61,240 bases of DNA, taken from assembly GCA_049521055.1 (NCBI GenBank), contig JBEKPE010000002.1, positions 1 through 61,240 on the forward strand. Direction: 5' to 3'. Each line of letters opens with the position of its first letter. Positions within the stretch are counted from its first letter, which is position 1. This DNA comes from Candidatus Bathyarchaeia archaeon. GTDB taxonomy: Archaea > Thermoproteota > Bathyarchaeia > 40CM-2-53-6. Below are positions 34,992-40,193 of the stretch, piece after piece. A program made the translations under genes and the position numbers. The notes under the pieces were generated by a model. That model did not search any database. It was not told the origin of the DNA and was given only the letters and a program-made list of their open reading frames with translations.

Positions 34992-35447
34992 TCAGCCGAT
35001 TTTGGTGTTGATCAGTGAAGTGGAGTAGAATACAACTATGAGAACGGTGAGGGTCCCGAGAATCAGGAGCAGGTATGCGTTGCGCGGTCTGTAGGCGTAC
35101 CTCGTGCTACGAAGCAGCATGTAGAGACCGGCTAGACCAAGAAAGTATAGGAACATAGCAATCAAGCTCTCATTCAAGGTCTGTTGTCCAAGAGTGCCCT
35201 GGATTACCACCGAGTATCCGTATGATGTAGGTAGAAGCGAGATTGGATGTTCAAGTATATCATAAATGCCACCAGCCAAAACGAACCCAACGAAGATGAC
35301 AACCGCCAGCGCCAAAACTGTTGTCGAAGGTTTCATCCTCCGCGTGGTCGGTCCTCTGAAAGACCGGAATGAGTAGCCGAAGTTACCAAAGAGCCGCTGC
35401 ATCTTCCATGGCACTCTACGTAATCTGATGCGAAGACCTTCGAGCAT
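34992..35447 (-). CDS. OSTC/DC2-like (OST3/OST6 family) oligosaccharyltransferase accessory subunit
   Basis: Three TM helices, 151 aa from ATG 35447. The segments [19 protein letters not shown]..NES....[16 protein letters not shown] and AYLLLILG line up by eye with the remembered human OSTC sequence. Confidence 0.75.
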   Translation of the reverse strand: [151 protein letters not shown]

Positions 35448-35531
35448 GTCGCAGTTCACTAGCAGTGGGAACGACCAAGAGGCTAAAATATGTTGCCTTG
35501 CTTGTTGGGTGCCCTTAAGCGTGGTTCAATT

Positions 35532-35708
35532 TTGCCCCAGAAGATTTTCTGTCAAGAGTGCGGCTCAGTCCTCTATCATGGGTTGGAGCTTGAAACTCCA
35601 ACAGAAATCATACAGAGGCATAACGGCATATGCCCTCAATGTAAGAGGAAACTCGACTTCGAAACCGAGAATGTCAAAATAGCCCCAAACGAGGAAGTAG
35701 CGAAGTAA
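35532..35708 (+). CDS. Small Zn-finger protein
   Basis: MPQKIFCQECGSVLY...CPQCKRKLDF, with two CxxC pairs. TTG start at 35532. Confidence 0.8.
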   Translation: MPQKIFCQECGSVLYHGLELETPTEIIQRHNGICPQCKRKLDFETENVKIAPNEEVAK

Positions 35709-35757
35709 GCCGCGTCATATCGAAGCTATTGCCGTAAGAGTACCTCAGTGAAGTGGT

Positions 35758-36885: not shown

Positions 36886-37212
36886 CCTCTGTCGGTTCTG
36901 GTCACGTTCCAGTTTGGATCGAAGCCACTTGAGCGGACCTTCCTCCTCAGTACCCACGTAAGGGACCGTGTCTCTTCTCTCAGTCATCGCAGAGGTTGGA
37001 TTAAGGACCGTAACGATCGGATTCCAACGGTAACCCTTCAAGCTCGGCATAGGCGCACCGCATTCTAGGCACTGCTCTAATCCATCCGGGTTGGAGGTTC
37101 CGCATTGGGAACAGAATATTGGGTTCAGAATCGAACCGCAATTAATGCAATACCTACCATCGCTGACGTTCGGCTTTGCGCAAGATGGGCATGACAGGTA
37201 GGCATCAGGCAT
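36868..37212 (-). CDS. Double zinc-ribbon protein
   Basis: CPSC..N...YCINCG...CSQCG..N....CLECG followed by a charged tail. Confidence 0.75.
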   Translation of the reverse strand: MPDAYLSCPSCAKPNVSDGRYCINCGSILNPIFCSQCGTSNPDGLEQCLECGAPMPSLKGYRWNPIVTVLNPTSAMTERRDTVPYVGTEEEGPLKWLRSKLERDQNRQRLLGSS

Positions 37213-37421
37213 GGTATGATTACCAATCCCCACTGAAATCAGTGATTCGACCTGACAAGGTTTTCGGACACTGATGACTCGAAACTCGAACTAGCTCGCA
37301 TTGGTATCGCAAGCAGGTACGTCCAGAGTGTGAATGACATGGTGTTTGAATCGGTCGTTCTGCTTCATCAACCTTTTATAACGCGCTCAAAGTCTACCTT
37401 CGAAAATCTGCGGGTGCATAA

Positions 37422-40193
37422 ATGTCAGCTACCGGCCGAGCCCTGAGAAAAGCTCGAAGCGTCATGGGCAAGTACGTAAACCGCGAAGTACTCGCGGAAC
37501 GAGTCGACGGCATCCGCAAAGCAGCGTCAGGAGTTTCACGTGGGACCGTTCTTGAATACATAGCCCTCGGACTGATTGTGATCATCGCCCTAGCTGTTCG
37601 ATTGATGCCGATTCGCTGGGGATACTACCTCAACGAATTTGACCCATACCTCCAGTGGCGGATGGCACAATTCACGGTCGATCACGGTTTTCTCGCTTGG
37701 TTCCAATGGCATGACAGCATGAGCTGGTTCCCGTACGGTGCCGACATGCCGACTTGGAACTTGTACGGCGAAGCGTTCGTTGTCGCTGCCATAGTAATGT
37801 TGCTACGTTTCATGGGGATAGGAGTTGCAGTGTTCGACGTAGCCATGGTCTTTCCGATTGTTGCAGGAACAATTACAGTGTTGATCGCATATTTCCTTGG
37901 AAAGGATTTCTGGGGAAAAGGCGCTGGGATGTTAACTGCCCTGTTCTTAGCATTGAACCCTAGCAGCATCGGTCGAACTCAACTTGGTTTCCTGCGTCAC
38001 GAGCCCCTTGGGATTCTTCTAATGCTTGTGATCTTTCTCTCCTTCCGTCGAGCAACAGTTTCCAGTTCCTCAACACGCAAAACAATCGCGTACTCAGTGA
38101 TAGCGGGCTTCTCGCTTTTCTATCTCGCAGCAGAGTGGGCAGGGTCCCTCTTCCCGCTAGATTTGATCCCCCTTTACGTCGTTATCCTCGTCTTGATTGG
38201 GCGCTACTCGAAGAAACTGTTCCTCAGCTATTCCCTATCAATGGGAATCTTCCTTCTCTTCACTCCGTTTCTGGTCCCGAAACTCGGATTCGGTTCACTT
38301 ACTGACCTCACGTGGTTGGCGGTTCTCGCCGGGGAACTCGTACTGGTAGCTCGGGAAGCATCCTCATACCTCGAAAGTACCAGGATGCGGCTGTACACGT
38401 TAGCAGCCGTTGTATTGGGGACTGGAGCACTAGTCTTAGCCCTTTCTTACTTCAACATCGCTCTAATACCGTACGGCAAATTCTACGCAGTTATCAACCC
38501 CTTCGTTCGCGGCGATGTTCCGATAATCGCTAGCGTCGCAGAGCACCAACCTGCAACTTGGGGGAGTTTCTTCTATGAATTCGGTGCCATAACTTTTCTA
38601 ATTCTATTCGGAATAGTGTTCGTAATCCAGAGGGGTAGAAACGAAGACATATTCACCATCCTCTGGGCTGTAACTGGGGTCTACTTCGCCGCTTCATTCG
38701 TGCGACTGACATTGTTACTCGCCCCCGTCTTCTGTATTCTGGGTGCAATTGGTACGGTTGAGTTAGGCAAGCCCGCCGTTGACATCGTGCGGGAAGCCGT
38801 CATCTATCCAAAACGCAAAACTCGAGTAATCTCCAGAATAGGACGAGAGTTTGGAGTCGCCATCTTCCTCATTTTACTGATCGCCATAATTCCAACCTTC
38901 TGGACCGCCGTGCGTGGATCATACCAACCCGCAACCATAGTCACATCCAGCATCCCGACGGCACCCGCAGCCGGAAATGAGCTGAAATACCAGGATTGGC
39001 TCGAAGCGTTATCGTGGATGCGACTGAACACGCCCCCAGGCTCAGTTGTTTTCGCATGGTGGGACTATGGCTACTGGATAACGGCACTCGGGGATCGCAG
39101 TACAATTGCGGATAATGGAACTCAAAACTCGACTCAGATAGGAATGATTGCCCAGACTTTCCTCGATAACATCACGTTTGCACTCCCTAACCTCCAACGT
39201 TACAATGTCTCGTACGTAGCGATCTTCATCACCCCCTCGGGCGGTACCTCGGGAGGTTGGCAAGGGTTCGGTGAAGACGGCAAATGGTATTGGATGGCGC
39301 GCATCGGGAACAATACCATGTGGAACAACAAATATCAAATCACGTTCAAAGAAACAAGCACTAATCCTCAGACCGGAGCAAGCGATTACGCACGGATAGT
39401 CACGGACCCAAAAACTAAGACGATCGTAAGCAACGACACAATCACGACCAGTGCACAGCTGAACACGAATTCGATGCTCGGTTACATGATGACCGTAACC
39501 ACAGCGAATACGCAAACTACACCATCCCCTTACCTCACTCAAGTATTCTCGTCCTCAAACAAGTTCGTATACTTGTTCAAAGTGAACTTGATCAAATCAA
39601 GCTTCATCACGATGCGCCCAGTCAAAACGCCAATCGTATACGGCACTCCGGTGGTCATGTCAGGAAACATTACCGATACTAATGGAGCCCCGCTCTCCTC
39701 GCAACCCGTGCAAGTCGTCTTGGAATCGTCTGTCGATAGCGGACAGTCGTGGCAACAAATCGGGACCGTTAATGCTGCACCAAACGGCGCGTATAACTAC
39801 ACGGCGCTCCCGAACGCGGGCACATACTTAATCCGTGCCCATTACGTTGGCACCGTAACTTACGGTGACGTCGTCTCAACGCCCGAATCGATCTTCGTCG
39901 CAAAAGCGAACGCCACCCTAACCCTATCAACCTCACCCGCTACATTCAGCCAGGGTCAAAACATCACAGTGACCCTAACACTTTCACCCTACGTCACGGG
40001 CACGAACGTAACCGTTGCATACACTTTCGACAACAAGACGTTCACCCCGATCGACACGGTATTCATGACCGCACAGACAATGAGCTTCACCTGGAAAGCC
40101 GATGTTCCAGGAACTTTCATGTTGGTTGCGACGCTGCAGGCAGGTGTGAATTATAACCCTGCCACCGCATACCTCACGATCCGCAGATCGTAA
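37422..40193 (+). CDS. aglB: Oligosaccharyltransferase STT3/AglB with C-terminal Ig-like extension
   Basis: EFDP, SVAEHQP, WWDYG, DNGT, EDGKWYWMARIG (DK-type motif), about 13 TM segments, and a beta-rich C-terminal ~200 aa. Confidence 0.95.
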   Translation: MSATGRALRKARSVMGKYVNREVLAERVDGIRKAASGVSRGTVLEYIALGLIVIIALAVRLMPIRWGYYLNEFDPYLQWRMAQFTVDHGFLAWFQWHDSMSWFPYGADMPTWNLYGEAFVVAAIVMLLRFMGIGVAVFDVAMVFPIVAGTITVLIAYFLGKDFWGKGAGMLTALFLALNPSSIGRTQLGFLRHEPLGILLMLVIFLSFRRATVSSSSTRKTIAYSVIAGFSLFYLAAEWAGSLFPLDLIPLYVVILVLIGRYSKKLFLSYSLSMGIFLLFTPFLVPKLGFGSLTDLTWLAVLAGELVLVAREASSYLESTRMRLYTLAAVVLGTGALVLALSYFNIALIPYGKFYAVINPFVRGDVPIIASVAEHQPATWGSFFYEFGAITFLILFGIVFVIQRGRNEDIFTILWAVTGVYFAASFVRLTLLLAPVFCILGAIGTVELGKPAVDIVREAVIYPKRKTRVISRIGREFGVAIFLILLIAIIPTFWTAVRGSYQPATIVTSSIPTAPAAGNELKYQDWLEALSWMRLNTPPGSVVFAWWDYGYWITALGDRSTIADNGTQNSTQIGMIAQTFLDNITFALPNLQRYNVSYVAIFITPSGGTSGGWQGFGEDGKWYWMARIGNNTMWNNKYQITFKETSTNPQTGASDYARIVTDPKTKTIVSNDTITTSAQLNTNSMLGYMMTVTTANTQTTPSPYLTQVFSSSNKFVYLFKVNLIKSSFITMRPVKTPIVYGTPVVMSGNITDTNGAPLSSQPVQVVLESSVDSGQSWQQIGTVNAAPNGAYNYTALPNAGTYLIRAHYVGTVTYGDVVSTPESIFVAKANATLTLSTSPATFSQGQNITVTLTLSPYVTGTNVTVAYTFDNKTFTPIDTVFMTAQTMSFTWKADVPGTFMLVATLQAGVNYNPATAYLTIRRS

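Follow-up and report, generated by a model that had tools for sequence, protein, structure and literature searches.

A window of 61,240 nucleotides from a Candidatus Bathyarchaeia archaeon (contig JBEKPE010000002.1 of assembly GCA_049521055.1) encodes, at positions 34992-35447, a small membrane protein that is almost certainly a true homolog of the eukaryotic oligosaccharyltransferase (OST) subunit OSTC/DC2 and of the membrane module of Ost3/Ost6. This protein, here called OSTC-like, has three membrane helices and no thioredoxin domain; it is homologous to OSTC/DC2 and to transmembrane (TM) helices 2-4 of Ost3/Ost6/MagT1, and its open reading frame (ORF) is the Thermoproteota (TACK) ortholog of the protein named "OST3/OST6" in Asgard archaea. 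By analogy with the eukaryotic complexes, we infer, with a probability of about 0.68, that the OSTC-like protein is a stably bound accessory subunit of STT3/AglB, and it may affect glycosylation. This reading draws on the homology of the protein, its fold and topology, its conservation as a single-copy gene in many genomes, its co-occurrence with a ribophorin I homolog, and genomic linkage to STT3. Most descriptions of archaeal AglB treat it as an enzyme of one subunit, with accessory OST subunits generally attributed to Asgard archaea and eukaryotes. The DC2-type subunit is thought to be a late metazoan and plant addition tied to STT3A.

Homology to OSTC and the Ost3/Ost6 membrane module

Human OSTC was the top match (E 1.3e-6, residues 33-145 of 151 aligned) in a single-sequence phmmer search against all chains of the Protein Data Bank (PDB), and no other PDB match to the protein was significant in that search. 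A profile built from 24 close relatives matched human OSTC among the PDB chains at E 2.7e-7. To the model of the Pfam family OST3_OST6 (PF04756), the protein aligns at E 9.7e-5 over profile positions 180-288 of 294, i.e., the last three helices, but the score of 22.4 bits lies below the gathering cut-off of 27 bits. The PF04756 model is trained mainly on eukaryotic Ost3/6. Many close members of the OSTC-like family carry a precomputed PF04756 match, and NCBIfam holds no model for the family. An exhaustive hmmsearch of 1.84 billion representative proteins with a Bathyarchaeia-only profile retrieved 178 clusters, mostly of 120-160-aa proteins, and in this forward direction reached a bona fide eukaryotic OSTC, that of the choanoflagellate Salpingoeca urceolata (E 4.9e-5). 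Other PF04756 matches in the genome (contigs C41 and C6) were rejected as OST3 candidates, as they cover the thioredoxin part of the profile only and the same match occurs in 12 of 14 control genomes.

The AlphaFold2 model of the protein, computed from an 80-sequence diverse alignment, is confident (predicted local distance difference test [pLDDT] 91.2; predicted template modeling score [pTM] 0.71); an earlier run on the alignment of 24 close relatives was set aside (pLDDT 66.8). The nine top matches of the model in a Foldseek search of the PDB are all human or canine OSTC, human MagT1, yeast Ost3, or yeast Ost6 (best E 6.9e-6), with the tenth at E 2.4, leaving a clean gap below the OST chains. 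Among the 19 best-conserved archaeal positions, 11 are identical in human OSTC (G47, Y50, P56, Q82, E86, G97, G100, S107, L121, G124, and K142), and the motif residues common to the archaeal family and human OSTC comprise GG..YD, Q...E, glycines, and a C-terminal lysine. This lysine (K149, 88% conserved in the family) aligns to K142 of DC2, while the remainder of the DC2 motif FMRMK is not conserved, the archaeal protein having LINTK.

The ATG start is preferred because the family alignment supports it over an upstream GTG at 35459, which would yield 155 aa. The N-terminal 41 residues contain 11 K/R, the first (external) loop is uncharged, and the TM2-TM3 loop is basic, a charge distribution that implies an N-in/C-out topology like that of DC2 (PMC5674889). 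In the family alignment, conservation extends to the basic N-terminal segment on the cytoplasmic side and to the external loop. Human OSTC, the STT3A-specific subunit of OST-A (PDB 6S7O chain H, 8B6L chain J, and 8PN9 chain H), is of nearly the same length (149 aa), shares the three TM helices, their orientation, and the absence of any thioredoxin domain, and superposes with a TM-score of up to 0.85 and a root-mean-square deviation of 1.8 Å; the STT3 of the archaeal genome is in turn most similar to STT3A. The two proteins differ in that identity is only 25-29%, the basic N-terminal segment is longer in the archaeal protein, FMRMK is reduced to its lysine, the archaeal genome has no match to KCP2, and the archaeal setting is the cell membrane rather than the endoplasmic reticulum. 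Yeast Ost3/Ost6 and human MagT1/TUSC3 (PDB 8AGC chain H, 7OCI chain C, and 6S7T chain H) have a homologous membrane module (TM-score 0.70-0.80), whereas the archaeal protein has no Cys pair and lacks both the first of their four TM helices and their lumenal CxxC thioredoxin domain. It therefore falls outside that subtype, and an oxidoreductase role is not possible.

The initial annotation, made from the letters alone, had described a 151-aa three-TM ORF with end-to-end likeness to human OSTC, about 2 kb from a eukaryote-like STT3 in a non-Asgard archaeon. Each of these points stands: the ORF is present on the minus strand with three helices in the model, every peptide quoted from it occurs in the translation, phmmer, profile, and fold searches all converge on OSTC, and the 11 related loci in named genomes come nearly all from Bathyarchaeia/Bathyarchaeota metagenome-assembled genomes.

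A subfamily with the N-terminal motif PW...KP...KP includes P0300, from a Promethearchaeota archaeon, and thus the Asgard "OST3/OST6" signature proteins (e.g., of Prometheoarchaeum MK-D1) belong to the same short thioredoxin-less family; Asgard proteins of 155-178 aa, P0300 among them, are also recovered with the Bathyarchaeia profile. In Asgard archaea and Thermoproteota alike, the OSTC-like protein is accompanied by a ribophorin I/OST1 homolog and a eukaryote-like STT3.

Linkage to STT3, distribution, and the ribophorin I homolog

The OSTC-like ORF is separated from the STT3 gene of the window by 1,975 bp. Judged by its sequence, this STT3 is nearer to eukaryotic STT3 than to euryarchaeal AglB: its best PDB match is human STT3A (E 1.1e-76, residues 40-633), followed by yeast Stt3 (9.5e-66) and STT3B, whereas euryarchaeal AglB structures match over the C-terminal domain only, at E 3e-8 (Pyrococcus AglB) or worse. 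The motifs SVAEHQP (residue 371) and WMARIG (residue 624), by which it had first been recognized as eukaryote-like, are present together with WWDYG (546) and a double sequon NGTQNST (565). The gene is single-copy in the assembly (2.36 Mb, ~90% complete). The sequon richness noted in the initial annotation holds for STT3, where 12 sequons are present and 5.9 expected, each of the 12 lying in the external half of the protein.

Eleven close relatives keep the order STT3 - DZR - (gcvT) - Zn-ribbon - OSTC-like - CarS - RadB - gcvH, with identities of 75-91% for the OSTC-like protein, 62-92% for STT3, and 59-90% for CarS. In a more distant set of 40 genomes from about 38 families, the 20 kb surrounding the OSTC-like gene were examined, and here STT3 lies within 10 kb of the OSTC-like gene in 18 of the 40 loci. 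For 53 pairs encoded on the same contig, the distance is at most 1 kb in 9, at most 10 kb in 39, and at most 20 kb in 49 (median gap 4.7 kb), compared with a chance expectation of about 1% of pairs within 10 kb. The synteny survey that the initial annotation had proposed comes out in favor of linkage. Several loci (L047, L049, L056, and L069) have a compact divergent cassette, with the OSTC-like gene on one strand and a zinc-ribbon gene followed by STT3 on the other. The Thermoproteota gene is usually linked to STT3 and present in one copy, whereas in two Asgard contigs it does not lie near STT3 and a tandem paralog occurs. The tandem paralogs, on Asgard contig JAEOTF010000069.1 (L071), lie at 9163-9663 and 10001-10480 and are 61% identical.

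The distribution was determined in an evenly spread sample of 401 Thermoproteota genomes using a diverse-family profile. Exactly one copy of the OSTC-like gene was found in 220 of the 401 genomes (173 of 335 high-quality genomes; 104 of 162 genera) and in all 60 genomes of the class to which the window belongs. The gene was undetected in about 45% of the sample, including several families of complete single-contig genomes. An archaeal profile detected the ribophorin-like gene in 220 of 401 genomes as well; because of this result, the mere 70 of 401 genomes recovered by the Pfam Ribophorin_I model reflect a limit of sensitivity. Overlap was counted at E <= 1e-10, as ribophorin matches between 1e-5 and 1e-10 may be coiled-coil noise. 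At this threshold, both genes occur in 172 genomes, the ribophorin-like gene only in 20, the OSTC-like gene only in 48, and neither in 161, giving an odds ratio of about 29 that is not corrected for phylogeny. STT3 itself is present in 390 of 401 genomes. In families that have neither accessory gene, STT3 is much more divergent from the STT3 of the window (E 1e-14 to 1e-68) than it is in carriers (mostly 1e-70 to 1e-184).

Two lineages depart from the joint pattern. About a dozen genomes in genus g41 of family f20 (e.g., G031, G055, G087, and G095) have a clear ribophorin-like gene with a weak or undetected OSTC-like gene; sister genomes score E 1e-6 to 1e-11 for the latter, and the pattern suggests a fast-diverging OSTC-like subfamily rather than loss. 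Members of Bathyarchaeia family f6 (G002, G029, G117, and G342) keep the OSTC-like gene and STT3 while the ribophorin-like gene is undetected, and hence coupling between the two accessory genes is not strict.

Ribophorin I, OST48, and DAD1 had been named in the initial annotation as further subunits to look for, and only the first was found. The ribophorin I/OST1 homolog is encoded on contig C121 (85-1827, minus strand; a 581-aa open frame) and scores 66.2 bits with PF04597, for which the cut-off is 25. A signal peptide is followed by an ectodomain of ~400 aa bearing ten sequons, by a single TM helix, and by a helical cytoplasmic tail of 148 aa that archaeal homologs share; in total the protein carries 11 sequons against 3.7 expected. 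OST48/Wbp1 (PF03345), Ost5/TMEM258, and Ost4 (models PF05251 and PF10215) had no match in this ~90% complete genome, in which very short subunits are hard to detect, and KCP2 (PF09775) had no match at E <= 1. A DAD1/Ost2 candidate (PF02109, E 0.12) was rejected as noise. Asgard genomes are reported to have homologs of Ost2/4/5, Swp1, and Wbp1 (PMC10307638), whereas Ost2/DAD1, Ost4, Ost5, and OST48/Wbp1 were not detected in the Bathyarchaeia genome, the searches there having covered OST subunits other than ribophorin II/Swp1 (PF05817).

The ribophorin-like gene adjoins gcvPA/gcvPB, and the OSTC-like gene adjoins gcvT/gcvH. Elsewhere, gcvPB/PA lies ~5 kb from the OSTC-like gene (locus L057), and a ribophorin-like gene lies ~7 kb away (locus L062). 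These arrangements suggest that contig C121 and the contig of the window may be close in the real genome.

A candidate accessory subunit of STT3

In eukaryotes, the three helices of Ost3 pack on TM10, 11, and 13 of Stt3, and Ost3 TM2 helps form the groove for the lipid-linked oligosaccharide (PMC7226087). On STT3A, the corresponding site is taken by DC2, which loses stability when STT3A is lacking and which, with KCP2, connects OST-A to Sec61; deletion of FMRMK blocks its assembly into the STT3A complex, with F138 and K142 the most sensitive residues (PMC5674889). By analogy, the OSTC-like protein would be a stoichiometric subunit that packs against the TM domain of STT3/AglB, probably at the same three helices, and may help wall the lipid-linked-oligosaccharide groove. 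STT3, the OSTC-like protein, and the type-I membrane glycoprotein that resembles ribophorin I and is encoded on another contig would then constitute a three-part OST at the cell membrane. The proposal of a multi-subunit OST in the initial annotation is accordingly upheld in part: the ribophorin I homolog, its co-occurrence with the OSTC-like gene, and the linkage to STT3 make it plausible, whereas OST48, DAD1, Ost4, and Ost5 were not detected.

Several points count against an STT3-bound role. The Pfam score remains under its gathering cut-off. Because the OSTC-like gene and STT3 lie on different strands, they do not form one operon here. The conserved block also holds unrelated genes (RadB, CarS, eIF2-alpha, and gcv genes), so that the linkage of the OSTC-like gene to STT3 may in part reflect synteny passed on by descent rather than a functional tie. 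The homolog is not near STT3 in the two Asgard contigs examined. Finally, the statistics on co-occurrence and STT3 similarity ignore phylogeny and are confounded with relatedness.

The OSTC-like protein might also do more than bind STT3. Like DC2, it could dock the STT3 complex onto SecY, with co-translational glycosylation at a ribosome-SecY-OST assembly in the cell membrane, a role that we consider unlikely. The DC2-type architecture itself, with three TM helices, no thioredoxin domain, and about 150 aa, is in keeping with docking, as are the conserved basic cytoplasmic N-terminus and external loop, which correspond to the regions that DC2 needs to interact functionally with Sec61 (PMC5674889). 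The ribophorin-like partner, with its conserved helical tail of 148 aa in the cytoplasm, points the same way, and the cytoplasmic domain of MK-D1 OST1 binds eukaryotic ribosomes (PMC11417166). On the other hand, KCP2, the partner of DC2 in translocon docking, is the subunit without a match at E <= 1, and homology to Ost3/6 alone does not imply docking, as the yeast OST, which contains Ost3/6, is reported in the title of PMC6761772 not to be directly coupled to translocation.

It is improbable that the OSTC-like protein is a true family member acting independently of STT3, either as a partner of CarS in lipid synthesis or as a small transporter, as once proposed for MagT1/TUSC3. MagT1 has been described as a regulator of cellular magnesium (PMC7226087), and 25 of the 40 distant loci have CarS close to the OSTC-like gene, immediately adjacent in most, which is more often than STT3 (18 of 40). 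The structurally characterized members of the family, however, are all OST subunits, and the CarS and OSTC-like genes are convergent and so not co-transcribed. CarS is, as far as is known, essentially universal in archaea, unlike the OSTC-like family, which ~45% of the phylum lacks and whose distribution follows that of the ribophorin-like gene and the type of STT3. A functional link between the OSTC-like gene and CarS was rejected on these grounds, and we read CarS as conserved context of the OSTC-like gene and not as its partner. A chance resemblance among hydrophobic three-helix proteins, for which low-complexity TM segments that can inflate scores and the sub-threshold Pfam match might be cited, has a negligible probability given the agreement of the separate phmmer, profile, 1.84-billion-protein, and fold searches, the end-to-end alignment with identical polar and glycine residues (GG..YD, Q...E, K142), and the gap after the OST matches, and in effect the fold search, together with the forward profile match to eukaryotic OSTC, already refutes it.

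Asgard Ost1 and Ost3/6 homologs have been on record since 2017 (Zaremba-Niedzwiedzka 2017, as cited in PMC8993221 and PMC10307638), and Carilo et al. 2024 name OST1 and OST3/6 subunits in TACK as well as Asgard archaea (PMC11417166); Lombard 2016 found none (PMC4973528). A published statement, albeit of a single sentence, thus already places these homologs in TACK, and PF04756 tags have been precomputed, so that the initial annotation overstated the novelty in placing accessory OST homologs mainly in Asgard archaea. In a literature search with most subscription journals outside its reach, no paper was found with figures for the distribution, a mention of the DC2-type architecture, or a description of linkage to STT3. 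The phylum-wide numbers and the STT3 linkage are what the present analysis adds, and these figures (about 55% of genomes, co-occurrence, and linkage) make the multi-subunit idea testable.

If the TACK proteins bind STT3 as accessory subunits, a multi-subunit OST would be older than the Asgard-eukaryote lineage, the ancestral form would be that of the DC2-type subunit, and Thermoproteota would offer a minimal three-part OST for biochemical and structural study of the roles of Ost3/DC2 and ribophorin I. A more speculative scenario, which as a whole is unlikely, may also be sketched. The last ancestor shared by Thermoproteota and Asgard archaea would have had an OST core of STT3, a DC2-like three-helix subunit, and a ribophorin I with a cytoplasmic tail; this core would later have been lost, with divergence of STT3, in the non-carriers (the families of complete single-contig genomes, probably cultured Thermoprotei). 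The thioredoxin-less DC2-type form would be ancestral, and Ost3/6 would have arisen in eukaryotes when a thioredoxin domain and one more helix were fused to it. The divergent cassette would be a co-regulated unit, with the zinc-ribbon protein a cytoplasmic, archaea-specific component, and the complex may already have been proximal to the ribosome and SecY.

Neighboring genes in the window

The genes around the OSTC-like ORF are listed in Table 1.

Table 1. Genes at and around the OSTC-like locus, with coordinates in the window.
Feature	Coordinates	Strand	Remarks
CDP-archaeol synthase (CarS)	34476..34985	plus	PF01864 E 2.8e-44; convergent with OSTC-like gene
OSTC/DC2-like (Ost3/6 membrane module) gene	34992..35447	minus	151 aa from ATG, three TM helices
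72-aa CxxC...CxxC zinc-ribbon gene	35490..35708	plus	divergent from OSTC-like gene, 42-bp spacer; weak DZR matches only
Glycine-cleavage T protein (gcvT)	35758..36885	plus	PF01571 E 1.2e-86
121-aa double-zinc-ribbon protein	36868-37233	minus	convergent with gcvT, 18-bp overlap of gcvT 3' end
STT3/AglB catalytic subunit, 923 aa	37422..40193	plus	PF02516 E 2.9e-38; eukaryote-like, C-terminal Ig-like extension

The 72-aa zinc-ribbon protein had no informative family or PDB match in Pfam, NCBIfam, or the PDB. A zinc-ribbon gene occurs near the OSTC-like gene in 27 of the 40 distant loci, and in the four loci with the compact cassette it is directly upstream of STT3. This position, on the same strand, suggests a co-transcribed, uncharacterized partner, and the gene may belong to the OST cassette. 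In many families a zinc-ribbon gene stands between the OSTC-like gene and STT3, L036 being another example. In this lineage, gcvT has been inserted after the zinc-ribbon gene and before STT3, and it is outside the OST set; it is missing from this position in L011, L012, L047, L049, and L056.

The C-terminal extension of STT3 (residues about 735-923; 39590-40193) contains an Ig-like Big_3_5 match (E 7e-7), a weak PKD match, and several sequons. The 121-aa double-zinc-ribbon gene keeps its place between gcvT and STT3 only in the close relatives.

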